Source: a virus. Taken from it: 38,746 bases of DNA. Shown one piece after another: positions 1 through 38,746 of this stretch. The notes below the pieces were generated by a model. It worked only from the letters and a program-made list of their open reading frames with translations. It did no database searches and had not been told where the DNA came from. The DNA lies in the IMG/VR virus record IMGVR_UViG_3300045988_141642. The stretch is one strand, 5' to 3'. Each line of letters opens with the position of its first letter. The first letter of the stretch is position 1. Position numbers and translations under genes: made by a program.

Positions 1-55
1 CCCGCAGCGTGTCCAAAACCTCCTGGGCGTATTCGTCACGCACCGTGTGTTCCGG
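1..55. repeat. Terminal direct repeat copy 1 (assembly overlap of a circular genome)
   Basis: Positions 1..55 (cccgcagcgtgtccaaaacc...caccgtgtgttccgg) are base-for-base identical to 38692..38746. Confidence 0.95.
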
Positions 56-3000
56 AGTGCTATCCAGCAGCTCATGGGCAATTTCTTTCGCCTGGTCCAT
101 GACAGACGAAAAGGTCACATCATCGTTGTTGCCAATGTAGTCAAACAGCCCTTTCAGCTGCACCATCAGGCGGGGTGTGTCCATCTTGCTGCCGGTGGAC
201 TTTTTCAGCTGCCGGGCCACACGCTGTACCTGAGTTTGAGAAGTATGGTGCCCGGTCTCCAGCTCCTGACTGTCAAACACCTGGCGCAGAGTAATGTTCA
301 TCTCGTCCAACCGCTTGTCATCCCGCAGCAGAGAAGTACGCCCGGTGTCGTCTATACTCTTGGACTTGCGACTGTCAGCGTTTAGTCCTTTTTGCAGCTG
401 ATCATTACGCACATTTTCAGGAGTTCTTCCTCCGTTACCGTTCCCTTCTTCTCGTAACGATCCGCGATTGAATTCAACATCGTGATGAAATTCTCTTTGC
501 TGCTTCCCAGATAGGTTACTATTGTCCCGATTGCCGTCTCTGAAGCGTCTAATGAGATCAGCAGCTCGATAAGAAGTTTTGCCAGATCCGTTCTGGACTG
601 ACTTTCTAAGTTCATTGTACTCTCTCCTTGCAGTTGTATCCAATGGTTTGTACACTAAAATATCCCTTGTGGGCGTATCCAGCATTTTGTAAGCATAAAA
701 TCCGCTGCCAATGGTAATGCAGCGCACCTCATTCATGTGGCGGTCTGCGTCCCAAGTCATAACCTCACGCTTTAAGTCCGCATACCGCTTTTTGCCGGTG
801 GTGTTAATCACATCATATCCAGCCTCGTCAAATTCGTCAACCTCTATTTGCTTTGAGTACCGAATATCGGACTGATCTGTAAAGCGTTTACTGGGCGGAA
901 TGATCTTACCGTCATTGTCATAGGTGATTGTATCCGCAGACTTTACCGCATTGGGATTGAAGGCGACATAGACATCTGCTTCTCTGTCGCTGGGGACTTT
1001 GACATTTTCTCCGCCACTGTCTTTAATGCGCTTAAAGACAATGCCGTCATAGCCGCTGGCCTTTGCGTACTCGGCAATATCCCGGGTTGTCGTGAGCCGC
1101 TTATCCATCTTGTTGTCCGTCAAAGTACCCAACGCCTGCTGCGCTTCCGCTGCAGTATTCCAGTTCATTTTGCCGTCAATCCACGCCGGCTGCATGGTAT
1201 TGCGGTCAAAGACTTGGTATGCGCCGTACTGGTTTCGCACTTCGTATCGATCCTGTGGCACTCTGTAATCCAGCCCATTCCAGTAATCGCCGAAAGCATC
1301 CACCACCAACGGATTTTCCAGCTTAGCATACAAGGAATAATTACCCTTGTTGATACACTGCTTCAGTCTGTTTTTGGCTTCTTCCACAGAGAGCAAGTCA
1401 ATACTATATCCGCCTAAGGCTTTTTCAACAATCATCGGTTCTGCATGGTCCAGTTGACGCACCTGATTGAGCAGTCGAACATCCTGTTCAGCTTGACTGA
1501 TCCTTTGGCTTTGTTCCGCGCTGTTGCGGAATGTATCTCCATGGTGCAGTAGCATATAGATCTTGGTGGACAGCTGGTCATAACTGTTTTTATCCAATGC
1601 ATTTTTCAAGTCTTGCAACTTGCGCACGGTCTCTCCGTCACCGTTAAACTGTTCAATTTCCCGATCGACTTCGCCTTTCAGCCATTCCAATTCACCATTC
1701 ACATGCGTGATCAGGTCGTTTCTTCCCTGCATATCCATAACGGAGTAATCGTAGTCCACCGTAGGCTCTTGAGCGTGTTGATTAAGCAAGGTCGCCAGTT
1801 CTTTATTGGACACCGTGTCCACATCCACCTGGTTGCGCTCACTGATCTTTTTACCGCCTTCCACGCCGGAATAGGTAGAAGCGATCACCGGGTCGCTGGT
1901 CATAAAAATACTGCGACCATCACCCATTTTATTCAGGTCAAATTCAGTAAAGCCAAACTGACTGGTTCCGTGATATAGCTTTACCGGTTTGCCGTCTGCA
2001 TCGGTATATGCGCCCCATTCTTTTGCCTGCTGCTCAATGATCTTTGCCTTTTGCTCTTCACCGGCTCGCTGGTATTCCCGATCCACTTCCAAGGAATGCC
2101 GGGTGTCATTTTTGCCGTTCTGTGCATTTTTTTGCTCGTTCTGCATAGAATGAGTATTGACATCAGGTCCATTTTGTGTTACCTTGTTGTCAGACGCAAT
2201 CCCTTGCTTAAAAGGCTTCCTGCTATTTGCATAGCCTTGAGGGGTTGCGTTTTTTATTTTCACATCTGCCTTCCGCATATCCACGATATCATAGAACACC
2301 ATCGCGTTCTGTGTGGTTATGCCAATAATCACATCAGCGGTATATCCGTTTTCACCAACCTTAAGGAGCACATCAGAATGTGCAAACTGCTTGAAGCTAT
2401 CATTTCGGCTGTGCTTCAAGTCTTCAATCTTTTTGTTTTTGCCGGATTTCAGGATCTCATCCAAATTCTGTGCGGATAGCAGTTTATCTTTGTAGGCTGT
2501 CTTTTCCTTTGCTTTAAGGTACTGAGAGTATTTTGAATTCAAAAACTCATTTTTGCTAATGGCATTTACTTTGACTACGCCACCCCACAAATCTACACCT
2601 GATTTATATTCAGACAAAATATTTTTGATTTTTGTCGCCCACCGCGACTTGGACACGCCAGCCAGTACATCATTATCAATAACGACACACGGTTCGCCGT
2701 CTTCTGTAATTTCAATAGAATGGCGAATTTCGGACTGACTATTTTCTGCTTCACCGCCATGCTTACCTTCTAACATTCTTTGGCGGTTGTCAATGGCATT
2801 GTCCAGTGCGTTAAAGAAGTTATCCAGCACCGGCACCTGCTGCGCCGCCTTTTGACCGGCTCGCGCAGTGGTATTCAGTGTGCCCTGTCCCTCAATTACG
2901 CTGCGCACAGCGTCCAGCAGCTTTGTAAAGAAGTCCTTGATCTTTTCCACAACGGACTTCTTTTCTTTTTGGGTCAGGTCGGTATCTTCCGCCAGCCACT

Positions 3001-6000
3001 TGGCGAACTTCTCGCCGCCCTCCTGCGTGCTGGCTTCACCACTGATGAAGTCAAAGATCATCTCGCTGACGGCATCTTCAATAGAATACTGCTTGCCGTT
3101 CTCGCTGTACCCATCTACATATTTCTGCAGCAGGTCAATCTTGTCATCGTGCGCATAATCGCCGGTTGCCAGCATATACTCCACAATCGGCCGGCAGGCG
3201 TCCATCATTTCCGCCGTGTTGTAGGCGTGGGTGTACTCGCCCAGCTCGTGCATAAGTGTGGCGTAGATATGCCCACTGTCCGGGTTCAGCACCACCTTGC
3301 CATTGGCAGGATCAATATAGCCGTTATCGTTGCTTTCCAGGCTGCCGTCCAGCACAATATCCAGCTTGGTCTTGGCCGCCACACGATCCAGGACTTCCTT
3401 TTCCTGCGGGGTAACCGTAGCTTCTCTGGTCAGCGTTACAACGCCGCCCTGGTTCTTGTTTGCTTTGGTAACGGCGGTCTTGGTGGTGCCGATCTCCTTA
3501 GACTGCTCCTGACCGCTCAGGAACAACTCATTGGCAGCACCACGGTCCATAATCCCCATTTCAATCGGTGCAGACAGTGTATTGGCTGCCTGGTCAAATG
3601 TAATCTTGCCTGACGCACCGGCGTTGTAAAAGCTCTCCGCCGCGTGCAGATAGGAATAAGGGTTGACCTTGCTGTCGTAATTTTTTACCAGCGCATAAGC
3701 GCCCAGGGAGCCAAACTTGGCAGCGCTCTTGTAAACCGCCTTGGTGTTGGGGTTGTTGAACTGCAAATAATCCGTGGTGGTCTTCGTACCGTCTTGCAGC
3801 TCGACCACGGTATGGCCGTCCTGGACCTTAAGGACGCCTTTCACTTGGCTCTCCGGCACAGGCTCTGCCCGCTGCAAGTCCACCGGCGTGGCAGCTTCAG
3901 TGACCAGCGCATTATAACTCGTGTCCGCAGAGCCGTGCTCAGTCTCTCTCTGTTCGGCAGGTTCTTGTTCTAAGCGTTCCTGCTCCAACTGGGCAATTTC
4001 AGCCTCAGTGATACCACCATAGGTGTCCTTAAACTCATTATACCCTTTTGCTTTTGGGTTTACAAGCAGTTCATTCATATATGCAGCAGAAGAACCGCCA
4101 CGCAGCATTTCATAGGCCATACTGCGGGTAGTGGATTGTGCCCAGTCGGTGCTATTGTCCTGCAACTCGGCGTACAGGGCCTTTGTGGTCTTGTCCCCTT
4201 TAATCTTCCCTTCGCCGTCGAAATAGCTACTCACAAAGCGGCTGGCGGCCTTGTTCACATTCTTAACGCCGCTGTCTTGCAGCCGTTGGCGCACAGCGTC
4301 CTCCAACACGATCTTTTGAGCCTGCGTAGTCGCAGCATCATCGCTGGTCTGCATTTCCATAGCCAGCTTGCCCAGCTGCCGCTTGGATATAGTTTTGCCG
4401 CTATCCTCTGCATCAGCCAGCTCGGCGGCAATGCGATACAGCTTAGAATTCTTATCTGCTGTCAGCCCGGCGTCAATCAACTCTCCAGCATTCCCGCTGC
4501 GGCGCAAATTCTTGCCATAAATATCCTGCTGCAAATGCCGTTCTCCGGACATGATTGCTTCGTTTGCGCCGCTCATCGCCATACCGGACAGGCCACCGGC
4601 TAAGAAAGCTGATAAATCTTCTTGCCCCGCCATAGACACGACTTTGGCAAGCGCCTGGGAATTGCTCAATCCCTGGGCACGGCATTCATCAAAAGCAGCC
4701 ATCATTTTGCTTTGGTTGCCGTTTGCCAGTGTATCGACAATGCGATCAAGGATATTACTGGCTACTTCTTCCGAACCCTCTGCCGCAAAACTCTTTGCAA
4801 GGCGTGCAAACACATTGCCACCGGCACCGAGGATCGCACCTAAGCCGAGTTTTTCTGAGATATATTCAACCGCGCCATACAGTGCACCTACGCCCAGCGC
4901 ACGATCGTCAGAAAAGCCCTGCTCTTTCATATCTGTAACTGTCTGCGTTGCCATTTGTGAAGCCATAATCAAGGAAGATGCGTTCGCGGCAATCTTTTTA
5001 GCGCTATTCAGCACCTTACTTGAACTGCCCTTGACTGGGAGTTTAATTCCAAGTCCCTGACCTACAGCCATAGAAGCGACAGAGTCTGCCATGGACATAC
5101 CGGTATCATAAATCCATGTGCCGATATTTCCCTGACTTGTATTCTTATCTTTCCAAAAATCCTGCTTTGCAATGGCTTCACCGGTTGTCTTTCGTGTATC
5201 AGAAGACATCTTGCCGGCAAGGTTAGCCAGGTCGTATGTATCGCCTACGCTGCCACCAACGGCTTTGGCGGCAGCGTCCACAATATATCCGGGTGCATTC
5301 ATCAAATTTTCACCGACTGTCGCAGCATTTGCAAGAATCGCTCCTGTTACGCCGTCTTGAGCCATTTTTCTCTGAGACAGAACGGTGGCGTCCGTTGCTT
5401 TTCGTTCAAGGTCTTTATTGATGGCTGAAAGATACTCGTGCGCTGCTTCAGCACCATTTGTGTTGTACAGATAATTGAACACCCCGCGCTGCTCGTCTGT
5501 CATCTGATTGTATTTGGTATCGTCCATCGCCTTGTTCATGCGGTTGCCCCAAAAGGCGATACCGCTCGCGCCAACCGGTGCCACGGCACTTCCAACGGAC
5601 TCTGACAGTCCATTAACAGCTCGATACACGCTGTCCTGATTGGACTTGTCGATCTGCTTTGACTTGTCAGCAAAATCTTTTTGATTAGGAATATCCGAAT
5701 ATTTGTCAACGATTTTTTGTCGCCGCTCGTACTCCTCCATCTCCTGTATCTTCTTATCATATTCATCCAGCGCAGCCATGTGCCGATTGGCTTCTTCCTG
5801 CATTTTTGCGGCGCGCTCGCTATCCGTCCGCTCCAATGCGATACCAATCAGCTTCTCTATGGTGTTGCGTGTTTGACCACCATACTGCCGTGCATAGGAC
5901 CTGCGCTCATCCTGCAAGCGTTCAAGATCACTCCGATCATCGGCTGCACGGATAATTTTGCGCCGCTGTGCAAGACTCTCCTCCTGCGTCTGCTGATGAT

Positions 6001-6196
6001 ATTCAGGCACTTCATTACGCCTATAGCTATTGCGAGCCAATACATCAGCGATCTCCTCTTCCGGGTCGTCATACTCATATCTTTTCTTTTTCGGATCGTA
6101 AAATCTGGAATTTTTTCTTGTGTCCTCAGCAACGCGCTCAGCTGCGCCGGAATGCTGTACCACTTTGGCAAAATTTTTGCTTTTTCTAATATCCAT
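1..6196 (-). CDS. Giant virion polyvalent/internal-core-like protein, N-terminal part. This is one 3,442-codon ORF that wraps through the circular junction and stops at 34559.
   Basis: ATG at 6196 has GAGGA 8 nt upstream and lies 17 nt after the stop of 6213..7256. Hand translation of the minus frame (codon first bases at positions = 1 mod 3) gave MDIRKSKNFAKVVQHSG... with no stop down to position 1. Frame checkpoints at 5563, 3253, 2731, 2107, 1978, 868 and 43 all agree. The ORF track omits it because its stop lies beyond the window edge. Track ORFs in 47..6200 are antisense or off-frame. Confidence 0.8.
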   Translation of the reverse strand, partial: MDIRKSKNFAKVVQHSGAAERVAEDTRKNSRFYDPKKKRYEYDDPEEEIADVLARNSYRRNEVPEYHQQTQEESLAQRRKIIRAADDRSDLERLQDERRSYARQYGGQTRNTIEKLIGIALERTDSERAAKMQEEANRHMAALDEYDKKIQEMEEYERRQKIVDKYSDIPNQKDFADKSKQIDKSNQDSVYRAVNGLSESVGSAVAPVGASGIAFWGNRMNKAMDDTKYNQMTDEQRGVFNYLYNTNGAEAAHEYLSAINKDLERKATDATVLSQRKMAQDGVTGAILANAATVGENLMNAPGYIVDAAAKAVGGSVGDTYDLANLAGKMSSDTRKTTGEAIAKQDFWKDKNTSQGNIGTWIYDTGMSMADSVASMAVGQGLGIKLPVKGSSSKVLNSAKKIAANASSLIMASQMATQTVTDMKEQGFSDDRALGVGALYGAVEYISEKLGLGAILGAGGNVFARLAKSFAAEGSEEVASNILDRIVDTLANGNQSKMMAAFDECRAQGLSNSQALAKVVSMAGQEDLSAFLAGGLSGMAMSGANEAIMSGERHLQQDIYGKNLRRSGNAGELIDAGLTADKNSKLYRIAAELADAEDSGKTISKRQLGKLAMEMQTSDDAATTQAQKIVLEDAVRQRLQDSGVKNVNKAASRFVSSYFDGEGKIKGDKTTKALYAELQDNSTDWAQSTTRSMAYEMLRGGSSAAYMNELLVNPKAKGYNEFKDTYGGITEAEIAQLEQERLEQEPAEQRETEHGSADTSYNALVTEAATPVDLQRAEPVPESQVKGVLKVQDGHTVVELQDGTKTTTDYLQFNNPNTKAVYKSAAKFGSLGAYALVKNYDSKVNPYSYLHAAESFYNAGASGKITFDQAANTLSAPIEMGIMDRGAANELFLSGQEQSKEIGTTKTAVTKANKNQGGVVTLTREATVTPQEKEVLDRVAAKTKLDIVLDGSLESNDNGYIDPANGKVVLNPDSGHIYATLMHELGEYTHAYNTAEMMDACRPIVEYMLATGDYAHDDKIDLLQKYVDGYSENGKQYSIEDAVSEMIFDFISGEASTQEGGEKFAKWLAEDTDLTQKEKKSVVEKIKDFFTKLLDAVRSVIEGQGTLNTTARAGQKAAQQVPVLDNFFNALDNAIDNRQRMLEGKHGGEAENSQSEIRHSIEITEDGEPCVVIDNDVLAGVSKSRWATKIKNILSEYKSGVDLWGGVVKVNAISKNEFLNSKYSQYLKAKEKTAYKDKLLSAQNLDEILKSGKNKKIEDLKHSRNDSFKQFAHSDVLLKVGENGYTADVIIGITTQNAMVFYDIVDMRKADVKIKNATPQGYANSRKPFKQGIASDNKVTQNGPDVNTHSMQNEQKNAQNGKNDTRHSLEVDREYQRAGEEQKAKIIEQQAKEWGAYTDADGKPVKLYHGTSQFGFTEFDLNKMGDGRSIFMTSDPVIASTYSGVEGGKKISERNQVDVDTVSNKELATLLNQHAQEPTVDYDYSVMDMQGRNDLITHVNGELEWLKGEVDREIEQFNGDGETVRKLQDLKNALDKNSYDQLSTKIYMLLHHGDTFRNSAEQSQRISQAEQDVRLLNQVRQLDHAEPMIVEKALGGYSIDLLSVEEAKNRLKQCINKGNYSLYAKLENPLVVDAFGDYWNGLDYRVPQDRYEVRNQYGAYQVFDRNTMQPAWIDGKMNWNTAAEAQQALGTLTDNKMDKRLTTTRDIAEYAKASGYDGIVFKRIKDSGGENVKVPSDREADVYVAFNPNAVKSADTITYDNDGKIIPPSKRFTDQSDIRYSKQIEVDEFDEAGYDVINTTGKKRYADLKREVMTWDADRHMNEVRCITIGSGFYAYKMLDTPTRDILVYKPLDTTARREYNELRKSVQNGSGKTSYRAADLIRRFRDGNRDNSNLSGKQQREFHHDVEFNRGSLREEGNGNGGRTPENVRNDQLQKGLNADSRKSKSIDDTGRTSLLRDDKRLDEMNITLRQVFDSQELETGHHTSQTQVQRVARQLKKSTGSKMDTPRLMVQLKGLFDYIGNNDDVTFSSVMDQAKEIAHELLDSTPEHTVRDEYAQEVLDTLR
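382..615 (-). CDS. Candidate overlapping +1-frame ORF (77 aa) inside the giant gene
   Basis: ATG at 615 is preceded by AAGGAGAGAG at about 8 nt. The product looks helical (MNLESQSRTDLAKLLIELLISLD...) and its codon usage is more genome-typical than the main frame over the same nucleotides. It could instead be a +1 frameshift arm or chance. Confidence 0.3.
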   Translation of the reverse strand: MNLESQSRTDLAKLLIELLISLDASETAIGTIVTYLGSSKENFITMLNSIADRYEKKGTVTEEELLKMCVMISCKKD

Positions 6197-6212: not shown

Positions 6213-7256
6213 TCAAAACAGTTTTGTACCCAAACTAAAGTTCGGCTTCCCGGGATTGGGCGGTATGCTCACATTGCGTTTCTTCACATGCAGATTACCG
6301 TTTTTATCCTCTTTAATCTCAACCGCCTTGCTATCAATAAGGTAGTCGAATTTTGCCTCGCTGATTGGGCCATACCCCAAAGCGAGTATCTCACTTTTTG
6401 GTACGCCATGATATTCCGGCTTCACCTTATTTTTTCTCTTACCGCCAGTGTCAAAACCAGTACCGGAGCCACCGCGTCCACTGGATCTGGAAGAGCGAGA
6501 AGAGCGTGCAGCCTTTGCAGCCTTTGCAGCCTTTGCAGCTTCCTCCTGCTGCCGTTTCCACTGCAGTACATCCAGCTGGTAATCCTGATCAGCCTTCCAC
6601 TTGGAGAGCGCTCTGTCCGCCTTGCTCTCACCCAAGTTGCCCTCGTATTTAGCCATATCGCTAAGGAAGGACAGGTTATCACTGTATGCCTGGCTATCTA
6701 CCGCACCGGTCTTTTCCACCGCTGCGTCCCACAGAGAGCGTGCATTCTGTAAAGCTTCCACCTTGTCCTGGTACTTTTGGTAATCAAACGCACCGGCCTC
6801 GTTGGCTCGCTGCCCACCGGCGGCTTTATTCTCCATTTCCCCGGAGTGAATTTGGTTTGCCGTAGACAGTTTAGACAGCAAGTCCTCATTCTGACCAGCC
6901 AATCCGTTCATATAGCTCTGCTGGGCAGCAGGAACGGTGTAGTCCGTGTCATAGCCACCGGCCATATTCTCTTCTGCGTTAGTCTGCGTGTCCGCTGCTG
7001 CCAGCTTAGAAAGCGCCGCATAATCTCTGGCGTAATCGCCGAACACATCAGCGTTGCCGAAATTGGAAGACTGGGCACGGCGATTGAGAATATCATCCAC
7101 CGCACCCTCTACCATCTTAGCGAATGTACCGTTACGGTAAGGGCCAATTGCGCTGAGTTTCTTGTCATAGTCGTTCCTGTTTTTCTGTGCATTCTTGGTT
7201 GCCGCAGACTGTTTCACCTTGCCAAGCGCTTTTCTGGTCTTAGAACTGTAACTCAT
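6213..7256 (-). CDS. Low-complexity virion protein (347 aa), internal/ejection-protein-like by position
   Basis: Track ORF with a strong RBS (AAGGAGGAATTGG-ATG). It is Q/N/A/K-rich with AAKAAKAAKAARSSRSSRSS and a basic C-terminal domain, and is tightly packed in the late operon. Confidence 0.75.
   Translation of the reverse strand: MSYSSKTRKALGKVKQSAATKNAQKNRNDYDKKLSAIGPYRNGTFAKMVEGAVDDILNRRAQSSNFGNADVFGDYARDYAALSKLAAADTQTNAEENMAGGYDTDYTVPAAQQSYMNGLAGQNEDLLSKLSTANQIHSGEMENKAAGGQRANEAGAFDYQKYQDKVEALQNARSLWDAAVEKTGAVDSQAYSDNLSFLSDMAKYEGNLGESKADRALSKWKADQDYQLDVLQWKRQQEEAAKAAKAAKAARSSRSSRSSGRGGSGTGFDTGGKRKNKVKPEYHGVPKSEILALGYGPISEAKFDYLIDSKAVEIKEDKNGNLHVKKRNVSIPPNPGKPNFSLGTKLF
6508..6539. repeat. 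9-bp tandem repeat (gcagccttt x3.5) inside 6213..7256
   Basis: Seen directly. It encodes AAKAAKAAKA and is adjacent to a second short repeat encoding RSSRSSRSS. Confidence 0.9.
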
Positions 7257-7267
7257 CCAATTCCTCC

Positions 7268-8074
7268 TTACTTCTTGTTAAGAATTTTTCGCTGAAGTTT
7301 GTTATTCCGATCGGCAATAGCCCTTTCCTGTTTGCGTGCCTGTTGGCTCTCGTTCAGGTTGCCGTAATACTGCTGTTGACCGGAGGCAAAGCTGCGATCA
7401 TCGTTCCATTTCGTGTAATCGTTGGAATAGGAAGTGTTGAACCGATTCGTGTTGTAATCCATCTTGTTATAGGCGTTGCCCACAGCGTCCTGATACCGCC
7501 CATACTGCTGCTGATTCACACTATCAAGAAGGTCATAGGCATTCTGCTTACCTTGCTGCTGTTGGTCATATTTTTGATATGCCAGGGACAAAAGCTGCGA
7601 CTGTGTATTGGACAGGTTGTTCAACTGCGCCTGGTTGGCAGCATTACCCGCCGTAGTCGCCGCAGAGGAGGCATAGCCACCTGTTGCTGACGCCATCTGG
7701 CCCATCGTGTCCAGCATATCATTACGGCCCTGCGCCTGGTACTGTGCCTTATAGGCCCGGTATGCAGCGTCATTGTCTGCGTCATAAGAAAACTTTGACT
7801 TTAAGATGCCACCCAACATGTTTTGCAGCCGGGCGGTATAGTCCGTCAAGCCGTTTGCCTTGGCATACCCGCCATAGCCGCCGTTTAACAGAGAATTGTA
7901 GCCTTTGACACTGGCGTCCATGTCCTTCTTTTCCTTGGACTTCATCAGTGCTTTATAGTCCTTGGAATTGGTCCATCCGCCGCTATACTTATTGACTGTT
8001 TTTGTCCAGCTGCTCAGGTTCTTTTGCGCAGCCGTCTGTTTGGGCTTGCTTTTCTTTGGTTTGCTCTTTGCCAT
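7268..8074 (-). CDS. Q/N/Y/G-rich low-complexity virion protein (268 aa)
   Basis: Track ORF. RBS is GGGGGA 9 nt upstream. It has a lysine-rich N-terminus (MAKSKPKKSKPKQ) and sits between the tail genes and the giant ORF. Confidence 0.75.
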   Translation of the reverse strand: MAKSKPKKSKPKQTAAQKNLSSWTKTVNKYSGGWTNSKDYKALMKSKEKKDMDASVKGYNSLLNGGYGGYAKANGLTDYTARLQNMLGGILKSKFSYDADNDAAYRAYKAQYQAQGRNDMLDTMGQMASATGGYASSAATTAGNAANQAQLNNLSNTQSQLLSLAYQKYDQQQQGKQNAYDLLDSVNQQQYGRYQDAVGNAYNKMDYNTNRFNTSYSNDYTKWNDDRSFASGQQQYYGNLNESQQARKQERAIADRNNKLQRKILNKK

Positions 8075-8641
8075 TTATCTGATCCCCCATATATACGATA
8101 TTGTTCGTGCTGTGATCGTCACGCTGCCGCTTTTCACATTGGCAGAATAGCAGTTGTCGATCGTTACCTTATTTCCTGCGTAGTCGCCGTCCACGGACCA
8201 CACAGTAAAGTCTGTTGCGCCAATGTGCGTATGCGATCCGCGAACGGCAGTGCAGCTACGGTCTCCGTCCAGAATAGGACACAGGGCGTGCATCCAGCTA
8301 TTGCTAAAGCGGATAAGCAGAAAGCGGTAGTTGTCCACGCTGTCATTCAGAGTGATCGTATCGCCAGCCTTTGCGGTACTCCCGCTGAACAGTAGAGCGG
8401 ATGACCGACCGTCCCGGATCATCTCGTCCACCTGCTCCGTTTTCAGGCCTTTTGTACTCCGCTGATCACCGTCTCCGCCATTGGTTAATGACGCCAAAAA
8501 AGTCCGCGTCAGATTCTGTTCGTCCATGTTGTTCAGCGCATAATTCAACTTATCTGCCATCTGGTTCAGGTACAGATACAGACGCTGTATCCGCTGACTA
8601 TCCGTTACGCCGTCAGACGGCTTACCAATGTTAAAAGTCAT
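8075..8641 (-). CDS. Tail-associated structural protein (188 aa), function by position only
   Basis: Track ORF. Its start overlaps the stop of the 893-aa gene (ATGA). It abuts the next gene with no gap. Confidence 0.75.
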   Translation of the reverse strand: MTFNIGKPSDGVTDSQRIQRLYLYLNQMADKLNYALNNMDEQNLTRTFLASLTNGGDGDQRSTKGLKTEQVDEMIRDGRSSALLFSGSTAKAGDTITLNDSVDNYRFLLIRFSNSWMHALCPILDGDRSCTAVRGSHTHIGATDFTVWSVDGDYAGNKVTIDNCYSANVKSGSVTITARTISYIWGIR

Positions 8642-11319
8642 AAGTCACTCCCTAAAGTCATTGTGTTTGCAATACTGATCACCCGAACATCTCCGCAGCC
8701 TTCCAGCCGCAGCGCATAGTGATCACAGGCTTGCGGAACGATATTCAATACTTCCGTCTTCGGTGTACCATTACCGGTCAACACACCCATTTGGATCCAC
8801 TGCCCGCTGCTGTCGTACTGGATAAACGCTTTGAGCACAGCGCCCAGCGCGATCTTAGCCCGCAGGTTAATACGGCTGACGATCTTCTTATCCGGGTACG
8901 AAAAGTCTATGGCACCGGTCTCCGCGTACCATTCCACCTTGTCTTCCGTTTTGTACAGTTCCAGTCCGGACAAAGCTGTCTCGTTGTGTCGGCCAAGTTC
9001 ATGGAAAATACAGTTCGGGTCCATTGCATAGACCGACCCGGTGTAATCCGTGATAAAGTGCAGATACCGCATTCCGTTCAGACGCACCCACAGGCTGGTA
9101 TTCAGGTCATAGACAAAGGTCTCGTAGCCGCCGTCCGTCTCGTTCTTCATGGAGATATAATACTTACCAAGGGAACTTCCGGCGTTGGCTTCTGTGTATC
9201 GTGTGTTACCCAGGGCAGCGGAAATGTTGGTCACCGTGCTGCCATCAAATACACACACGCCGTCCAGCGACTTATAGAATACTGCTCCATTCAGCACCGC
9301 CAATGAGCCGGAGCAGTCATTTTCAACGCCGCGATCTTCAATGGCAATGCGTTGGTATGCCGCCGGATAGCCGCCGTAGATGCCATAAATCTTATTTTGT
9401 TTGAAGAAGTACGGCATATCGTTTAAGGACACCGCGCCGGTAAACGGCTCATCATCACCCAGGGACAATGCGTAGGAATCCGATGCCGTATTCTCAAAGC
9501 AATACCAGTTGGTCGGATCACCCAGCTTGCTGGCGTAGATTTGGTTAATATGCTTACCTGCGGAATCTTTGCCGTACTTGCAGCCCCACACGCGGTTTTG
9601 TGCTACAGTGACAAAGTCAAATTCCGGAAGCACTTTTTCTATTCTGTTTGGACAGTGATATGTGGAATCAATAACACGCCGCAAGCCCTTAACGACCAGC
9701 CGGCTGCCGTCATCGGAAACAGAATGCACATTCGCCCATTCGGTAACGAACACACTCTTGCCTGCAGACACCGAGAACTTGACCGTATCACCTGCCTTAA
9801 CGGAAGCGAGTATATCGTCTTTGATATCTGTCGTGTCCACAAGCACATAGGTCACCGGAACTGCGATCCAATCGTCTGCTGTGGACGAATATGCCTTGAA
9901 CACAGGTGCATCATCGTTAGTGGTATCTACCCAGTATGCGTAGAACCGAGTATTTGAAAACAGCACATTATCGACTGCCACCCAAGCACCATCTTCATTT
10001 TTGTATAGCGTACCCTGACTAAATTTTTTAAGTCCGCTACCTGTTGTCCCGGTGGTATCCAGCCAATAATCATTGCCTTTTGTACCAGGGTCTTTATCCT
10101 GCCGCTTCCACGCGCTGGCAGCCGCAAGCGTATTGAACTCGCCATTGCCTCGCACGGCCATTAGGTCACCGCTTGACCGTACAACACAAGTGCCTACGGC
10201 AGCACCGGCAGGTTTTGCAGCGCTATATATCAATCGCGTGTACGGAGCACCGTCCGCACTGCACATATCGCAGCCGAAATAAGTATCCGTTGTCTTGTTA
10301 AACGCCAGCGGCAGCACACCCTTGTCCGGTTCTTCCGTGTCAAAATACAATCCGTATGGGAAGATCAGGATTTTCGTACCAAAGTTTAACAACTGCAATT
10401 TGCCATTCACAGCAGCCAAATCCGGTATATTCCCACGCAAACTATAATGATTGCCTTGGTAGTACAAAACATCGTTAAATACAGAAGTCATCAGACCGTT
10501 CTTAATCATACAACCAACATTGTCGCCTGAAGCAGCCTTATCAATATAAAGCACACAAGAGGCATCTGCTGACTTTATTCCATCAATTACGGGCTTTAGG
10601 TCTTCTTCAAGTTTGTCTTCCATTCTTTGGTATTGCTTTTTGATATTGTCAGTGCCAAACTTTGGCTGCTCTGCAACTTCGTGAATCTCCTCCCCAACAA
10701 ACGCTATGTCCAAATACACATTCTCGCTTGAATCCAAATCATAAATATAATTTGGTCCTTGAAAGGTATTTATTATCTCATCGTTCATCTGCTTGTTAAT
10801 GGAAATGCTTTTGATAGGCCATTTGTAATAATACGGTGCCACATATCTACGCATAAACTCTAAACCAAAGCACTCAGAATTTATGGTTTTTCCGTCACAT
10901 ATTTTTACTCTCACCTTTTCTGTCAGTTTACTTTTAAAATCCACATAGATGCGCATGTTGAACTCGCGATGAACTCCACGCGCGGAATACATGACAGCGC
11001 TACCGTCATCGTTATCTCCGTGATATGTAAACTCCCTATGCACATATCGATCATTGAAAATACCTATACGATTTTTTGCTCGTTGCGAATCACTCGTTTC
11101 TGGTCCATCATACAAATCACACAAAAAACTATTGTCAAAAAGAGGATATTTGTACCGGTTCATCGGTGCACGGTTGGATAGCATAGGGTAATCGTCCAAT
11201 GTGATATTCTCGGTATTAAAGAACTCGCCAGCCTGCTGCACAACGCGGTGGTTATAGCCAAGGAATGTGGAGATCATCTCTCGGTTGTTGCTTACATTGC
11301 TAAGCACTGGTCTTTGCAT
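8638..11319 (-). CDS. Large tail structural protein (893 aa), podovirus nozzle/tail-tube-B sized
   Basis: Long track ORF in the late operon downstream of the capsid gene. I recognised no catalytic motif. The 5-prime third is visibly more AT-rich than the rest. Confidence 0.8.
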   Translation of the reverse strand: MQRPVLSNVSNNREMISTFLGYNHRVVQQAGEFFNTENITLDDYPMLSNRAPMNRYKYPLFDNSFLCDLYDGPETSDSQRAKNRIGIFNDRYVHREFTYHGDNDDGSAVMYSARGVHREFNMRIYVDFKSKLTEKVRVKICDGKTINSECFGLEFMRRYVAPYYYKWPIKSISINKQMNDEIINTFQGPNYIYDLDSSENVYLDIAFVGEEIHEVAEQPKFGTDNIKKQYQRMEDKLEEDLKPVIDGIKSADASCVLYIDKAASGDNVGCMIKNGLMTSVFNDVLYYQGNHYSLRGNIPDLAAVNGKLQLLNFGTKILIFPYGLYFDTEEPDKGVLPLAFNKTTDTYFGCDMCSADGAPYTRLIYSAAKPAGAAVGTCVVRSSGDLMAVRGNGEFNTLAAASAWKRQDKDPGTKGNDYWLDTTGTTGSGLKKFSQGTLYKNEDGAWVAVDNVLFSNTRFYAYWVDTTNDDAPVFKAYSSTADDWIAVPVTYVLVDTTDIKDDILASVKAGDTVKFSVSAGKSVFVTEWANVHSVSDDGSRLVVKGLRRVIDSTYHCPNRIEKVLPEFDFVTVAQNRVWGCKYGKDSAGKHINQIYASKLGDPTNWYCFENTASDSYALSLGDDEPFTGAVSLNDMPYFFKQNKIYGIYGGYPAAYQRIAIEDRGVENDCSGSLAVLNGAVFYKSLDGVCVFDGSTVTNISAALGNTRYTEANAGSSLGKYYISMKNETDGGYETFVYDLNTSLWVRLNGMRYLHFITDYTGSVYAMDPNCIFHELGRHNETALSGLELYKTEDKVEWYAETGAIDFSYPDKKIVSRINLRAKIALGAVLKAFIQYDSSGQWIQMGVLTGNGTPKTEVLNIVPQACDHYALRLEGCGDVRVISIANTMTLGSDL

Positions 11320-12056: not shown

Positions 12057-13043
12057 TCAGTTTTCCGTGGTGCTGGTGTCTGCACTGCGGTAGCTACAGC
12101 TCTCAAAACGAATGATGGCATATTCGTTCAGAATCTTTGCACCGTGCGTAGCCTTCCAGCCGGTGGAGCTACGCTGGTTCAGCGGATCATCACCGTAGCC
12201 CAGCGGCTTAACGATATAGTCCAGACCCAGGCCGTCCAGCTCGGTAACGCCGTAAGCATTGGCGCCCAGGAACAGCGTGCCGTACACAGCCAGCTTGGAG
12301 CCGGAAGTCTGCTTGTAAATCTTAGCGTTGGAAGAATCGACAAAACGGCACTTGCCAATCTTACCGATCTCGCCCTCGAACAGAGCGGTGGTGTCCGCAT
12401 ACTTGTGCATCTCCTCCCACTCGCTGGACAGCATAATATCCGTCTCCACATCAGGGTGGATAATGCAGACATAGTAGCCATCAATGGGGGTAATATCCCG
12501 ACGCTTCAGCTCGTTGACCATCTTCTTTACATCAGCCACGGTCAGTTTGTCAGCCGCAGTCAGTGTATCACGAGAAGTCTTGCCGCCGGCATAAGCCACG
12601 CTGGTGGTTGCCTGCATAGCATTTCGTGTCACCAGGTCAATGGTGTTGCCCGCCTGGTTGCCCTGCTCTTTGCAGTCCTCCACAATCACATTATCGAACG
12701 CGGCGGTCTGCAGCATATCGGTGTGCTTAATGTAGTCACCATACTGGCTCACAGTGGCCTTAATGGCGGTCACAGTCCGTTTGGTGCCATTAGGCGTTAC
12801 ACCTTCTACAAGCGGGGTAAGAGCGGGCGGCAAGCTGGAAAACTTACGCCACTCTGCTACCTTGCCGGAGCCGCGCGGAATTGGCTTTTTCTGCCCGAAC
12901 TGACCATGCACCAATTTGGGCTTGGCATTCTCCAACAGCTCCTTAATGTAATATTCCTTGATTTCAGCCGCAAGGCCGGTGTCAGTCGTTGCAGCCATGT
13001 TGGCGGTGCCATCGAACAGCTGCAGGTTCATTTTCTTATTCAT
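12057..13043 (-). CDS. Major capsid protein (HK97-fold, N4-gp56-like family)
   Basis: 328 aa, downstream of the scaffold gene. Strings typical of the N4-gp56 capsid family are present (...LVEGVTPNGT...VSQYGDYIKHTD...). The N-terminus carries MNLQLFDG. Confidence 0.85.
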   Translation of the reverse strand: MNKKMNLQLFDGTANMAATTDTGLAAEIKEYYIKELLENAKPKLVHGQFGQKKPIPRGSGKVAEWRKFSSLPPALTPLVEGVTPNGTKRTVTAIKATVSQYGDYIKHTDMLQTAAFDNVIVEDCKEQGNQAGNTIDLVTRNAMQATTSVAYAGGKTSRDTLTAADKLTVADVKKMVNELKRRDITPIDGYYVCIIHPDVETDIMLSSEWEEMHKYADTTALFEGEIGKIGKCRFVDSSNAKIYKQTSGSKLAVYGTLFLGANAYGVTELDGLGLDYIVKPLGYGDDPLNQRSSTGWKATHGAKILNEYAIIRFESCSYRSADTSTTEN

Positions 13044-34558: not shown

Positions 34559-37500
34559 TTATTTGCTTTTCAGCCAGGCGTTAGTACGGTTATAGATCTC
34601 GTCTGCCGTGTACAGTCCGGTGTTGTACATCTTCTGTCGAATATTTCGGCGGGTGGTTTCATCGCCCTTAATGTACTTATCCTTGTACGCAGCGGTAATG
34701 CGGCTCTTAATATAAGCACCGTCTTTGCCCGCTTTTCCGGCTTTCTCAAGCTGTGAGATAATGCTTTTCACTTTGCCGGAACTGGTATCCATAGCCTTGA
34801 CCACATCGGAGCTGCTGTACGGTATGCCGGTCTTGTTGGTATGGCCCTTAGCCATCGTTGCCACTTCATCCATCGTGAAGTAGTCATCCGAAGCAATGGC
34901 CCGCACATTCGCCTCGTATGTATCAAACGCGCCAACCTTATAGGCTTCCGCAGCACGCAGCAGCCGTTCATCCGACTTGGCGAACTCTCGGCGTATGGCC
35001 TTGTCCACCATATCCTCGGCCTTGTCCTTGGTATAGCCGTTCTTGACAGCCGTGTTTATCAGGTCTTGGCGCATACGCTTGGTGCCAGAGTTGTCATTCT
35101 TACTGATCGCCAACGCCACATCGCTGTAATCATAGCGCGACTTCAATTTGCCCTTAGGCTCATTGCTGGTGTCTACATGATCGCTCACATACTTCTCCAG
35201 CGCCTTGGCATCAAAGCCGGTGGCTACCACTTGGTCGAACTTCTCCTTGTACTCCGCCTTATACTCTTCTGTGCCGTCGTCATTCTCCTTGGCCGTGACT
35301 AATGCCTTGGCGGCGGACTCAATACCATCTACTGCCTTAACGGCGATCTCGTCACTAAAGCCCAGCTTGATAATATCTTGCAGCCGAGCATCAAAGCCGT
35401 CATAGTCACCCTCCAAATGAGCCTGCGCAGCCTTGCCGGCATTCTGGTCATTGGCCTTGACCGCAGCCACCAGCATACGGTTAAAGGTCTCATCGTCTCC
35501 GGCCTCTCGCTGCATACGATCAACGATCTCCTGATCGCCGGTAGATACAGCCTTATAGAGCTTTGCAGACTTGTCTGTATCCGGGAACATCTCAATGCCG
35601 AACTTCTCCAGCAAATCATCAATGAGCAGCTGGCCCTTCATCTCGTCATTAAACACTTCCTTGGTGCCGGTTGCGCCGGTGTGCATATCCAATGTGGCCT
35701 TGTGGATCACATTGAATACAGATTGCACATCCCGAGCTACGTTCTTGTATGGCAGACCGACAAAGGCGGACAAGGCGCCGGCCAAGCGGTTGATCTTCTG
35801 GCCAGTGCTGATGGTGTCACTGTCCATAGCTTGAACAGCATCACGCAGATCTATGAGCAGGTTCATATCTGCCCGGCTCACATCGTAGCCCATAAATATA
35901 GAGATTGCATCTTTCAGCATCGGAAGTTGTCCTGCCGGGTTCAAATTGCTCCACATATTCGGCAGCAGCTGACCGAGGTACACTTCCAGGTAAGTCTTGT
36001 CGTCATCATCGTCTCGTGCTGCTGTAACGATAGACTGAAGAATAGAGTTGAGCGCCGCAGCTGCCACAAGCGATCCAACAACCCTTGCGCCATAGGACTT
36101 GGGGGCATTTCCGTTCTTCACCTGGTACACAGCGTCCACCAGCATGTTCAGAGAAGTGGTAGGCTCAGCCATGAAGGCCGTTGCCATCTTCATAGCGTTA
36201 TCAGACGAACGCATCATACCCGATCGGGAAAATACAGAGTCATACACTTGGGTGCGGTCTACTACTTCAGAGAACCGTTCCCCGGCCTTCTGGTATGCAG
36301 CCTCACCGGTCAGGTGAAAATCTGTTTTGGCCTCGTGTACGCAGGCATTCCAGATATGTGCCCAGGTCAGTTCATCCGCCTTTTCCGGCAACGCAGACAG
36401 CACGCTGTCCCGGTAGTCGCTGTCCGTGACCAGCGCTCGCAGCTTTTTGCCAAAGCCGCGCGGCTTGTCTGAGTTGATCCAGTCCGTGGCCGTCTTGCCC
36501 ATTCCGGTATCAAAATAGCCCATCTCCTTGACAATAGCCACCGGGGCGTACTTTTTCAGCTGCGCATAATCCCGCTTGCTAACAGTCGTGGCCACAAAAT
36601 GCTTAGCCGGAATCACTGCCATCGCTCTGGCGATCGCAGATGGCTGCTGGATAGCCACAGAAGCAGACGCAAACACGGCACCCTTCTTGAACAGACTGAT
36701 ACCCTTGTTCACATACCGTGAGCCATTGTCCGGTCGCACACCGCCGTTCAGGTCTCGGATGAATTGCTCAATATACCGTTTGGACTCCGTGTCCATATAG
36801 CCACGCACCGCCTGCGATACCGTACCGTTTTCGCCAACCTGGGTGTGGTAGTTGTACACCCGCTGGAAGTCCTCCAGCGGCAGCGTGAACGCATGATACA
36901 ACGCCATATCATTTACATGATTGGCCCACACATCATCGAAAGACGAAATGACCAGGGCATTGTTGGCGTGTACATTCAGCTGATTTGTAAAGCCGCTGTT
37001 CTTGATCTTGGCGTCACCATTGGCCTTGTCCTGAATATACTGCACATAATCACCGGCGGAACGCATGGGGATATAGTCGCTGTCCGTAAACAGGTCCATA
37101 TCGTACATCACCCGAGATACCTCGTTGCCCTTAGCGCCCATTGTATCTGCCAAATAGCGCTGCATATCCTGGGCGTAGGCTTTCTGCTCCTTGGTGAGCA
37201 TATCCGTGGCCTTGGCAATGTCTTCCACGGTCAGCGGGTGTGCCGTGTTGTCCGTCAGCTCCACAATGCGCTTGCCCCGCTTGGAGCGGGTAGATACCTT
37301 GTCAAACACCATACCGCCCTGGGTCAAGTGCTGCATTGCCGGTTCGCGCCGACTGAGCGCATACAAATAGAGCAGCTGCTGCAAATTGAATTTCAGCTTT
37401 TCGCCGTACTGGGTATCCAAAGTAAAGGTCCTTTTTGGGTTCCAGTTGTAGGCATGGTACTTCTCTTTCAATCGCTGAGAATACTGCCGCGCATCGTAGC

Positions 37501-38746
37501 AATCCCGGGCCCAGGTGTCCTGACCACCGCGCAAGTTGTGGTATAGCTTCTCCAGCGTAGGCGAGCCTTGCATTCTGAAGAAATACTCCGGCTTCAAGGC
37601 GTTGTAGCCAAAGCCCTTCATAAACTCGATACGCTCGTTGGTCTTCTTACCATTGGGATCCTTTTTGCTGCCCTTCAGTTCATGAATGATCTGCTGGCCC
37701 TGGCTCTCCACCGTAGCAGTTTTCTCTGCCTTGAATAGGCGGTTGCTGTTGGTAACAGCCTTTTTGACCGACCGGATCAGCTGATAGGTTTGTTCCAGCT
37801 CATCAGCGGTCATGTCGTTAATGGACTTGTCGCCAATGCTCTCCTTTAACTGGAGGATTTGTCCCTTAAACAGATTGTTGTAGTCCTCCACCAGAGTGGC
37901 ATACTCGGTCTTTTGGCTATCATTGCCTTCTATTTTGTCGAAGCCGTCTCTAACCTTATTCAGGTAGCTGTCCAGCCTCTCCCCGGCCTTGCCGTCCAGA
38001 ACCACAGCCCTACCCAGTTCTTTCACGCTGTCCAGAAGTCCATTGGGCACCCGGCGCTCTTTGCCGCCGTTTGCCGCCAGGCTCATCAAGTCCAGTATCT
38101 GCTTCTTGATTTTGTTCTTCTGCACCGTCTTGCGCCGCTTTTCCACATCGCGGTGCCGCCGTTCTGCGTATAGCTGCCGCTGGGCTTTCAGCTGATCGGC
38201 GTACTGGGTACGCATATCTGCTTTGTCCTGCCGACTCTTGGATTGTACCGCCTTCAACTTCTCTTCATACCGCTGGCGGTAATCATCCTTAACGGACTGG
38301 AGCCGCTTGCGGTATTTGTTCTGCATCGCAGTAAAGCGATCGTTCTGTCGCTGGGCATAGGTCTTGTACTCCGGAGTGTCCATGTACGCATCAAAAATAT
38401 CATAGGCCACGGTAGTGGCAGCATCGTCCATGTCCATACCGTCATAGGAATAATAAGAGTCTTTCAACTCCTCCACGATCTCCAGCAGTCGCTCCGGCAT
38501 GTTCTGGCTATTCTCCTCAGCATCAAAAGTGCCCGGGTACAGTTCAGCCAGCTCCTGCCAAGCGCTATCCAAAGACTGTCCATTCTTAGCCAGATTGACC
38601 GCACCAAACAGTCGTTTGCGGTAGTTGCCATACCGATCATGGTGGTAAGCCGTCTCCGCCTTTTGCTCATCGGACAGCGTGATTGCCATACCCCGCAGCG
38701 TGTCCAAAACCTCCTGGGCGTATTCGTCACGCACCGTGTGTTCCGG
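34559..38746 (-). CDS. Giant virion polyvalent/internal-core-like protein, C-terminal part
   Basis: Track ORF 34559..38734 (1391 aa) is the same frame continued through the 55-bp overlap. Its listed GTG start is internal (...ELLDSTPEHT-VRDEYAQEVLDTLRG...). TAA at 34559..34561 is followed by an intrinsic terminator. Confidence 0.85.
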   Translation of the reverse strand, partial: PEHTVRDEYAQEVLDTLRGMAITLSDEQKAETAYHHDRYGNYRKRLFGAVNLAKNGQSLDSAWQELAELYPGTFDAEENSQNMPERLLEIVEELKDSYYSYDGMDMDDAATTVAYDIFDAYMDTPEYKTYAQRQNDRFTAMQNKYRKRLQSVKDDYRQRYEEKLKAVQSKSRQDKADMRTQYADQLKAQRQLYAERRHRDVEKRRKTVQKNKIKKQILDLMSLAANGGKERRVPNGLLDSVKELGRAVVLDGKAGERLDSYLNKVRDGFDKIEGNDSQKTEYATLVEDYNNLFKGQILQLKESIGDKSINDMTADELEQTYQLIRSVKKAVTNSNRLFKAEKTATVESQGQQIIHELKGSKKDPNGKKTNERIEFMKGFGYNALKPEYFFRMQGSPTLEKLYHNLRGGQDTWARDCYDARQYSQRLKEKYHAYNWNPKRTFTLDTQYGEKLKFNLQQLLYLYALSRREPAMQHLTQGGMVFDKVSTRSKRGKRIVELTDNTAHPLTVEDIAKATDMLTKEQKAYAQDMQRYLADTMGAKGNEVSRVMYDMDLFTDSDYIPMRSAGDYVQYIQDKANGDAKIKNSGFTNQLNVHANNALVISSFDDVWANHVNDMALYHAFTLPLEDFQRVYNYHTQVGENGTVSQAVRGYMDTESKRYIEQFIRDLNGGVRPDNGSRYVNKGISLFKKGAVFASASVAIQQPSAIARAMAVIPAKHFVATTVSKRDYAQLKKYAPVAIVKEMGYFDTGMGKTATDWINSDKPRGFGKKLRALVTDSDYRDSVLSALPEKADELTWAHIWNACVHEAKTDFHLTGEAAYQKAGERFSEVVDRTQVYDSVFSRSGMMRSSDNAMKMATAFMAEPTTSLNMLVDAVYQVKNGNAPKSYGARVVGSLVAAAALNSILQSIVTAARDDDDDKTYLEVYLGQLLPNMWSNLNPAGQLPMLKDAISIFMGYDVSRADMNLLIDLRDAVQAMDSDTISTGQKINRLAGALSAFVGLPYKNVARDVQSVFNVIHKATLDMHTGATGTKEVFNDEMKGQLLIDDLLEKFGIEMFPDTDKSAKLYKAVSTGDQEIVDRMQREAGDDETFNRMLVAAVKANDQNAGKAAQAHLEGDYDGFDARLQDIIKLGFSDEIAVKAVDGIESAAKALVTAKENDDGTEEYKAEYKEKFDQVVATGFDAKALEKYVSDHVDTSNEPKGKLKSRYDYSDVALAISKNDNSGTKRMRQDLINTAVKNGYTKDKAEDMVDKAIRREFAKSDERLLRAAEAYKVGAFDTYEANVRAIASDDYFTMDEVATMAKGHTNKTGIPYSSSDVVKAMDTSSGKVKSIISQLEKAGKAGKDGAYIKSRITAAYKDKYIKGDETTRRNIRQKMYNTGLYTADEIYNRTNAWLKSK
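38692..38746. repeat. Terminal direct repeat copy 2
   Basis: Identical to 1..55. Unique genome length is therefore 38,691 bp. Confidence 0.95.

Follow-up and report, generated by a model that had tools for sequence, protein, structure and literature searches.

The locus described here raises the question of what kind of protein a temperate phage encodes when more than a quarter of its genome is given to a single gene, and whether such a protein may be delivered into the host. The gene lies on the minus strand of the IMG/VR virus record IMGVR_UViG_3300045988_141642, the whole of which (38,746 nucleotides, 50.4% guanine plus cytosine) is referred to as the window, and its predicted product (hereafter the giant protein) has 3,442 amino acids (aa), a mass of 384.7 kDa and an isoelectric point of 5.8. 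An earlier examination of the letters without database searches, the sequence-only reading, had proposed an injected effector of the polyvalent type described by Iyer, Burroughs, Anand, de Souza and Aravind (2017, J Bacteriol, PMC5512222). Sequence comparison supports the assignment of the giant protein to the phage-type polyvalent proteins, with central domains flanked by conserved N- and C-terminal modules. The best explanation of its role, to which a probability of about 0.6 is assigned, is that of a 385-kDa cargo-carrying ejection protein, packaged in the capsid and ejected through the tail, the ends of which would serve assembly and exit while the exchangeable centre would act on the host.

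The first and the last 55 bases of the window (1-55 and 38692-38746) form an exact repeat and the window is therefore a circular assembly with a unit of 38,691 bp; the repeat is an assembler overlap of a circular contig and not a biological terminal repeat. The minus frame beginning at the ATG at 6196, with a Shine-Dalgarno sequence GAGG 7 nt 5' of it (GGCGAGGAAAAACTATG), is free of stops to position 2 (2,065 codons) and on the circularised sequence it proceeds to a stop at 34559-34561. This gives 10,329 nt including the stop, or 26.7% of the genome, as the sequence-only reading had estimated (10,329 of 38,691 nt, about 27%) from one 3,442-codon open reading frame (ORF) crossing the junction. 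The window was cut artificially within codons 2048-2066, for which reason an ORF caller blind to circularity gives just a fragment of 1,391 aa (34559..38734).

An ORF that crosses artificial window ends could be the product of a mis-joined circular assembly or of genes fused by sequencing errors. However, the 600 nt spanning the junction have an exact match within an independently assembled 540-kb contig of the Joint Genome Institute, in which the giant gene is uninterrupted and differs from the window at 2 of 10,329 nt. The match extends over the whole gene and makes a frameshift very unlikely. Proteins of 3,442 aa, identical or near-identical, are recorded from dozens of contigs, the homologues listed include more than 100 of full length (3,309-3,449 aa) and the ORFs of divergent relatives span 2,500-3,400 aa. 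Ratios of nonsynonymous to synonymous polymorphism (pN/pS) against two relatives were 0.00-0.11 over residues 2001-3442 and 0.08-0.10 over residues 751-1000, such ratios being unreliable where cassettes are replaced. The giant ORF is thus one intact coding gene under purifying selection and an assembly artefact, the chance of which is negligible, is excluded by the 540-kb contig. Several long ORFs of 260-364 aa run antisense to the gene (2780-3613, 35378-36472 and 36764-37546 on the plus strand, and others) and are taken to be shadow ORFs of the long coding region.

Phage-type polyvalent proteins combine at least two distinct effector or enzymatic domains in one polypeptide, are encoded among late phage genes and exchange their domains among orthologues. 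In the giant protein, the ADP-ribosyltransferase (ART) domain ART-PolyVal (PF18760) was detected in two stretches with E 5.7e-13 and 50.3 bits against a curated cut-off of 31.2, and DUF6782, a zincin-like metallopeptidase domain, in residues 908-985 with E 5.5e-7 and 29.5 bits against a cut-off of 27. LPD3 (PF18798) scored E 0.0019 and 18.8 bits, below its cut-off of 27, and is strong in relatives (for example, E 2.1e-15 in P0121); the corresponding segment, cassette A, is therefore termed only LPD3-like. Terminase, portal, capsid, tail fibre, holin and lysin genes surround the giant gene, a serine integrase is encoded in the window and the element is integrated in the 540-kb contig. In its domains, its place among the late genes and its mosaic centre, the giant protein fits the definition of Iyer et al. 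(2017). The earlier proposal of a polyvalent protein is thus sustained, also by the MuF_C, PBECR3 and PBECR5 domains of relatives.

ART-PolyVal belongs to the Tox-ART-HYD2 clade, the active site of which consists of a His in strand 1, a Tyr in strand 2 and an Asp in strand 5; His1409 (LYHGT) and Asp1715 (GYDG) of the giant protein are conserved in relatives.

The centre of the protein is hypervariable. Near-identical variants, of which 121 were compared, are mostly 93-100% identical over the first 1,350 and the last 1,490 residues, with short dips to 82-88% near residues 201-400 and 701-800, while residues 1350-1950 show 34-77% identity and fall into five allele groups, the two main ones being about 22% identical to each other. 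The downstream border is sharp, identity among close variants being 49-77% over residues 1801-1950 and 99-100% from residue 1951. The region of residues 1782-2190, which has no Pfam match, is common to about 40 of 259 diverse relatives. Cassette A is LPD3-like in most close variants and is MuF_C (PBECR RNase-type) in some (P0016, MuF_C E 3.9e-23). A survey of 12 large diverse members of the family found ART-PolyVal in five, LPD3 in four and PBECR5 in two, and another member carries PBECR3 together with MuF_C.

Short motifs stand at the borders of these cassettes. The pattern [DE][IT]R[HY]S occurs three times in the giant protein against 0.156 expected, a number reached in none of 2,000 shuffles. 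In 130 diverse giant proteins the related pattern D[IVT]R[HYF][SQ] is about 25-fold enriched and always lies mid-protein, with a consensus NPDIRYS[DE]R and often with VKSADPVTYDDNGNVIPLSERFN directly before it; no description of the motif was found in the literature. These motifs may be module delimiters, either cleavage sites or recombination joints. An N-terminal MDIRKS resembles the motif, is confined to the close lineage and was not counted.

Exchangeable toxin-type cassettes (ART, MuF_C/PBECR RNases) and strong polymorphism in otherwise identical prophages would also suit a phage-borne polymorphic toxin of the MuF-like kind, with particles or lysis products hitting competing bacteria to the benefit of the lysogen population. 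MuF-linked polymorphic toxins of temperate phages are described by Jamet et al. (2017, PMC5576092), and polymorphic toxin-type cassettes, including MuF_C in variants, are shared with the giant protein. However, no N-terminal MuF domain (Phage_Mu_F) was found in the latter, its variable part is central and not C-terminal, and its C-terminus is the most conserved part. The assignable downstream genes are those of tail fibre, holin and lysin, with no obvious immunity gene among them, though no dedicated search was made. A role as a polymorphic toxin is accordingly considered quite unlikely.

The most original part of the giant protein is its uncharacterised C-terminal module (C-module), which comprises about 1,000 aa (residues ~2190-3200). 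A divergent set of 15 loci from GTDB species genomes, on contigs of Clostridia metagenome-assembled genomes (MAGs), several of them 38-41 kb long, shows 33-41% identity to residues ~2200-3160; similarity to the N-terminal module (N-module) is weak in these relatives, and the stretch that separates the two modules shows essentially none. An exhaustive HMMER search with residues 2243-3442 returned 3,529 clusters at 50% identity with E <=1e-3 and 2,756 with E <=1e-30, the matches being mostly proteins of 2,500-4,650 aa that are matched near their C-terminus. The pN/pS over the C-module was 0.00-0.10. The C-terminal stretch of about 1,400 residues, in which the sequence-only reading had recognised no motif, is in fact the most conserved and family-defining part of the protein. 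The size of the protein, earlier held to be unusual, is not unusual within a lineage with thousands of such relatives; the giant protein is identical to database entries and is no rarity but a typical member of a very large unannotated family.

No Pfam, NCBIfam or PDB sequence match was found for the C-module (for PDB, the protein halves and a C-module profile were tried), and the sole return of PHROGs for the whole giant protein was phrog_22978, of unknown function. An AlphaFold2 model of residues 2190-3200, built from an 85-sequence alignment, was usable (mean predicted local distance difference test score, pLDDT, 77.4; predicted template modelling score, pTM, 0.70) and consists mainly of alpha-helices, showing a compact core and a long helical stalk. 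A Foldseek search of this model against PDB gave nothing significant (best E 0.11, template modelling score, TM, <0.2). Against BFVD it gave 75 matches, most of those listed bearing the suffix _2 or _3, which are taken to be later pieces of giant uncultured-phage proteins stored in segments. The entries are named PolyVal ADP-ribosyltransferase, MuF C-terminal domain, LPD-containing, nuclease, type I restriction enzyme and N-acetyltransferase, and originate from gut, freshwater and marine viromes. A 'structural protein' of Tenacibaculum phage Gundel was considered as evidence of packaging and set aside, the match being too weak (TM 0.26).

The C-module had no match among 72,556 plasmids. The cultured phages of INPHARED gave no match to the giant gene, the sole match in that collection being the faecal contig fragment MT838833, and the protein is not described in the papers on Faecalibacterium phages and on the MGV catalogue. 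The C-module is thus the hallmark, as yet without a name, by which a very large class of giant phage proteins can be recognised, and it has been found so far in phage and prophage sequences only. Two short, seemingly stand-alone C-module proteins (P0361 and P0188) are cut by contig ends and are no evidence for solo forms. The C-terminal tail that follows the module is less widely retained, coverage dropping from 107 to 18 of the 259 relatives, with a pN/pS of about 0.1.

The conserved N-module spans residues ~216-1150. Its first part, residues 216-650, is common to about 78 of the 259 relatives at 20-27% identity and is collinear with the zincin region, and residues 229-1140 as a whole are collinear with many family members at the same level of identity. 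Residues 1-215 have almost no coverage among the 259 relatives. Earlier descriptions of a charged N-terminus and of a Gly/Ala/Ser-rich stretch at residues ~190-640 are borne out by the composition (Table 1). The hydrophobic stretches of residues 190-640, which had been compared with those of membrane-inserting proteins, are below transmembrane grade on the Kyte-Doolittle scale. The only 19-residue window exceeding 1.4 is that of residues 2936-2954 in the C-module, within a predicted helix (model residues 741-769), and since this is the sole strongly hydrophobic helix, the membrane-inserting reading of the N-terminal stretches is unsupported. Residues 216-650 have no Pfam match, N-module relatives gave none either, and a profile search with the N-module found no PDB match.

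The zincin-like domain carries HELGEYTH where a canonical HExxH would be expected, and HExxH is absent from the entire giant protein. The sequence LMHELGEYTHAY is kept in 120 of 120 close variants (cluster representatives), and H983, E984 and E1045, the last a Glu downstream of the motif, are invariant in the N-module alignment. Distant relatives have HELTH, HEMTH, HELVH, HECFH or HEMYH at this place. Pfam MPTase-PolyVal matched neither the giant protein nor the N-module relatives. HELGEYTH lies in a region under strong purifying selection; the metal site may be altered, or the domain may be structural and devoid of catalysis.

The giant gene is carried by a temperate prophage of podovirus-like type in gut Clostridia, of the kind represented by Oscillospiraceae and Acutalibacteraceae MAGs, from which the homologues take their source names. 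The temperate nature of the element follows from the 540-kb contig, where genes of bacterial origin (for Mn catalase and prolyl-tRNA synthetase) flank the same gene set. The order of genes on the minus strand is small and large terminase, portal, protease, scaffold-like protein, capsid, proteins of 93, 121 and 893 aa, proteins of 188, 268 and 347 aa, the giant protein, tail fibre, holin and lysin. The giant gene is thus located late in the structural operon and, as the sequence-only reading had it, ahead of the tail fibre, with the lysis genes beyond; the tail fibre begins 15 nt past its stop. The succession of capsid, 121-aa and 893-aa proteins, small genes and giant gene is kept in the divergent loci with relatives at 33-41% identity.

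Such a position, between putative tail genes and the tail fibre, might equally be held by a tape-measure-like or purely structural tail protein (core, plug or needle) with incidental enzyme domains. Tape measures often carry embedded enzymes; the N-module is long, helical and Gly/Ala/Ser-rich, the C-module begins with a long helical part and the neighbouring proteins of 188, 268 and 347 aa have no assignable function. Against this, none of the genes gave a match to a tape-measure, tube, sheath or chaperone family, in agreement with the earlier claim that tape-measure, tail-tube and sheath genes are missing; in PHROGs the giant protein itself returned phrog_22978 only. The P22/SU10-type portal and the Pagevirus-like capsid, 37% identical to the capsid proteins of the Bacillus megaterium podophages Pascal, Pony and Palmer (genus Pagevirus), are podovirus traits. 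Together with the missing tail families they make a podovirus-like virion likely; the morphology of Pascal has been determined by electron microscopy. Furthermore, a ruler of 3,442 aa would imply an implausibly long tail, and a hypervariable enzymatic centre is atypical of a ruler. A tape-measure-like role is thus regarded as improbable.

The proposal of a packaged and ejected effector carrier draws on gene position and on a precedent. Late-gene phage-type polyvalent proteins were predicted to be packaged and injected, several enzymes acting at once on the invaded cell (PMC5512222). In the Stx phage phi24B, a temperate podovirus, the polyvalent protein gp47 (vb_24B_48, 2,807-2,811 aa) carries LPD domains and a metallopeptidase; proteomics detected it as a virion protein, described as abundant, but it is not visible in the cryo-electron microscopy map, and it was proposed to be an encapsidated ejection protein (bioRxiv 10.64898/2026.04.10.717836). 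Like the giant gene, that of gp47 is the last big gene of the late region in a temperate podovirus-type phage, but its host is Gram-negative and it occupies about 15% of the genome against 27%. The support from phi24B is by analogy, since gp47 is not detectably homologous to the giant protein; comparison with the N-module profile gave a strand-plus-HExxH resemblance only (E 0.0065, probability 5.8%).

Other virion proteins offer partial parallels. In coliphage N4 the virion RNA polymerase gp50, a protein of about 3,500 aa injected by a podovirus, has terminal encapsidation and injection domains that flank a central enzyme. It is packaged in the virion, and its relatives are fused to MPTase and ART domains (PMC5512222). 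The giant protein was rejected as an N4-like virion RNA polymerase, as the N4-type motifs of a single-subunit RNA polymerase (T/DxxGR, motif B Rx3Kx6-8YG, motif C) were not found, motif B in particular being absent, and no polymerase family or fold was matched; the motifs of the crAss-type RNA polymerase are likewise absent from it. The ejection proteins gp14, gp15 and gp16 of T7 and gp7, gp20 and gp16 of P22 occupy the same slot, with the genes for capsid and tail preceding them and that for the fibre or spike following, and the giant protein is predicted to be largely helical. It is, however, one giant polypeptide instead of three and carries effector enzymes, so that position alone is analogous; no PDB sequence match to these proteins and no Foldseek match to any solved chain were obtained. 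T4 Alt and P1 DarB/DdrB share with it an ADP-ribosyltransferase or enzyme cargo; theirs is delivered with the DNA, whereas packaging of the giant protein is inferred. The ART clade to which the giant protein belongs is of the H-Y-D type and that of T4 Alt of the R-S-E type (PMC5512222). The giant protein has no helicase or methylase domain; P1 DdrB is processed, probably by its own MPTase (PMC5512222).

With the polyvalent proteins of Iyer et al. (2017) as a whole, the giant protein shares ART-PolyVal, an LPD3-like cassette, a zincin-like peptidase, MuF_C/PBECR variants and mosaicism. It differs from them in that its enzymes lie between end modules unmatched in Pfam and in its non-canonical zincin motif. 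Nor did it yield any of the anchors sought, namely a MuF N-domain, a portal fusion, DarA-N or N4 RNA polymerase.

Several observations weigh against a packaged and ejected protein with active cargo. None of the head-targeting domains just named was detected by Pfam and motif scan, the C-module resembles solved ejection or internal core proteins neither in sequence nor in fold, and its comparison with phi24B gp47 showed no detectable homology (hhalign E 0.32). Packaging and injection are postulated for the family, and the podovirus-like morphology is deduced from portal and capsid homology only. The AlphaFold2 model of the N-module was poor (pLDDT 52.5) and came from 9 sequences only, the number returned by the profile homologue search, so that no deeper alignment was possible and a Foldseek search of the model was uninformative. 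As to the cargo, the strand-2 position of the ART, a Tyr in the clade, seems to be Phe1430 (SIFMT, against SYFT in some relatives, from BLAST alignments read manually), and self-processing of the window protein is doubtful because its zincin motif lacks the canonical second His.

Some of these points would equally suit a protein that stays in the producing cell, namely one that is expressed late and not packaged, and that serves as a scaffold in assembly or as an enzyme complex manipulating the host. The giant protein has no known packaging signal or head-targeting domain, and ARTs can work intracellularly, as do T4 ModA and ModB (PMC5512222). However, the placement in the late operon between tail and fibre genes and the phi24B precedent point to packaging, and it would be difficult to see why a 38.7-kb genome should give up 27% of its length to a late enzyme of the cytoplasm. 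Retention in the producing cell is thus also judged improbable.

If the giant protein is a packaged ejection protein, a few copies would be built into the capsid or the portal-tail channel via the conserved end modules and would exit by way of the tail, either together with the DNA or before it. The enzymes of the centre would then modify host targets early, by NAD-dependent ADP-ribosylation in the present phage and by RNA cleavage in variants, which would favour takeover or blunt host defence; the anti-defence role proposed by the sequence-only reading would be plausible. The hypervariable centre would be the product of an arms race. The junction motifs, and possibly the zincin-like domain, may mark the cutting of the polypeptide into modules or the recombination of cassettes; zincin peptidases were suggested to possibly release units of polyvalent proteins (PMC5512222). 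A more far-reaching proposal, offered tentatively and at somewhat less than even odds, is that the C-module and the N-module constitute a new phage-specific delivery chassis. In this chassis an ejectosome or DNA-pilot domain would load the giant into the capsid and thread exchangeable enzymes into Gram-positive hosts, with [DE][IT]R[HY]S as cargo-release sites, in a family of more than 3,500 clusters from gut, freshwater and marine phages.

The positions of the features within the giant protein and of the neighbouring genes are collected in Table 1.

Table 1. Segments and motifs of the giant protein and other genes of the carrier phage, with positions in the 38,746-nt window.
Feature	Residues	Window position	Strand	Basis or remark
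Giant ORF, 5' part	1-2065 and first base of codon 2066	1..6196 (ATG 6196-6194)	-	open frame
Giant ORF, 3' part	2048-3442 and stop (34559-34561)	34559..38746 (38692-38746 repeats 1-55)	-	circular translation
Highly charged N-terminal region	1-215	5552..6196	-	39% charged; kept only in close relatives
Gly/Ala/Ser-rich helical N-module	216-650	4247..5551	-	33% Gly/Ala/Ser
Small beta domain, then zincin-like metallopeptidase domain	781-1156	2729..3856	-	Pfam DUF6782
HELGEYTH	983-990	3227..3250	-	zincin HExxH variant, second His shifted three residues
EIRHS junction motif	1156-1160	2717..2731	-	upstream border of cassette A
Swappable cassette A, LPD3-like (residues ~1205-1295, window 2312-2584)	1157-1364	2105..2728	-	weak Pfam LPD3
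DTRHS junction motif	1364-1368	2093..2107	-	cassette A/ART border
ART-PolyVal ADP-ribosyltransferase	1365-1781	854..2104	-	Pfam PF18760
ART-PolyVal N-half	1399-1448	1853-2002	-
ART variable insert, 245 aa	1449-1693	1118-1852	-	replaced in close variants
ART-PolyVal C-half	1694-1781	854-1117	-
DIRYS junction motif	1777-1781	854..868	-	ART domain end
Hypervariable to residue ~1950, then conserved linker	1782-2065	2..853	-	linker runs over junction to residue 2190 (38318-38691)
C-module, family-defining	2191-3200	35288..38317	-	mostly alpha-helical, basic; 33-41% identity in all divergent relatives
VVGSLVAAAALNSILQSIV, sole strongly hydrophobic helix, within C-module	2936-2954	36026..36082	-	Kyte-Doolittle 1.82 over 19 residues
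Helical C-terminal tail	3201-3442	34562..35287	-	kept in minority of relatives
Small and large terminase			-	PHROGs
Portal			-	Pfam P22_portal / SU10_portal
Prp-like cysteine protease, 104 aa		14066-14377	-	Pfam Peptidase_Prp, phrog_4478
Scaffold-like protein, 300 aa		13078-13977	-	position
Major capsid protein		12060-13043	-	PHROGs
93-aa and 121-aa proteins			-	no informative match
893-aa protein, then 188-, 268- and 347-aa proteins		6216..11319	-	893-aa: phrog_511, 'internal virion protein'; others no informative match; same operon, upstream of giant gene
Collagen-like tail fibre, 496 aa		33056..34543	-	PHROG tail-fibre families; Pfam Collagen E 4.8e-14
Holin				called in locus L017, downstream of tail fibre
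Lysin			-	after holin; Peptidase_C39_2-type
Large serine recombinase (integrase)		29439-30872	+	Resolvase, Recombinase and Zn_ribbon_recom domains

A few further observations concern the carrier phage and its relatives. The scaffold-like and capsid proteins have an L27-like motif near their N-terminus (MLLQLFDG and MNLQLFDG, respectively), which suggests that the head proteins are trimmed N-terminally by the Prp-type protease, as is known for staphylococcal phage 80alpha; the Prp-type cleavage motif LQLF was not found in the giant protein. The collagen-repeat tail fibre (L001 13619-15532 and L002 13619-15106 in relatives) shows 69-86% identity between close relatives against 86-96% for flanking genes, a divergence consistent with host-range variation. 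In Bacillus phage Pascal, an unannotated gene of 1,672 aa (L016 18364-23382) ends the structural module before the lysis genes. Its product was examined as a relative of the giant protein and rejected, as hhalign against the C-module shows no similarity; large proteins in the Pascal-equivalent slot may be characteristic of the lineage in general. The lysis end of the prophage in the 540-kb contig (L017 23900-30300) is bordered by genes of the host that encode Mn catalase, low-molecular-weight phosphatase and prolyl-tRNA synthetase. Phage-sized contigs with close or distant relatives (L002, L008) were binned as Bifidobacteriaceae and Coriobacteriaceae, labels that are probably binning errors rather than true hosts, all other matches being to Clostridia.

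The giant gene is noteworthy for its 27% share of the genome, its widespread uncharacterised C-module and its junction motifs. Characterisation of the C-module, which in its 3,529 clusters has no Pfam family, solved structure or assigned function, would annotate thousands of giant 'hypothetical' proteins, and the virion proteomics of phi24B makes the packaging hypothesis directly testable. If the protein is indeed packaged and ejected, a common lineage of temperate phages of gut Clostridia would devote a quarter of its genome to one injectable, cassette-swapping effector carrier, the hypervariable ART/RNase block of which would record the arms race between gut phages and their hosts and which would constitute a natural protein-delivery system into anaerobes that are hard to study.

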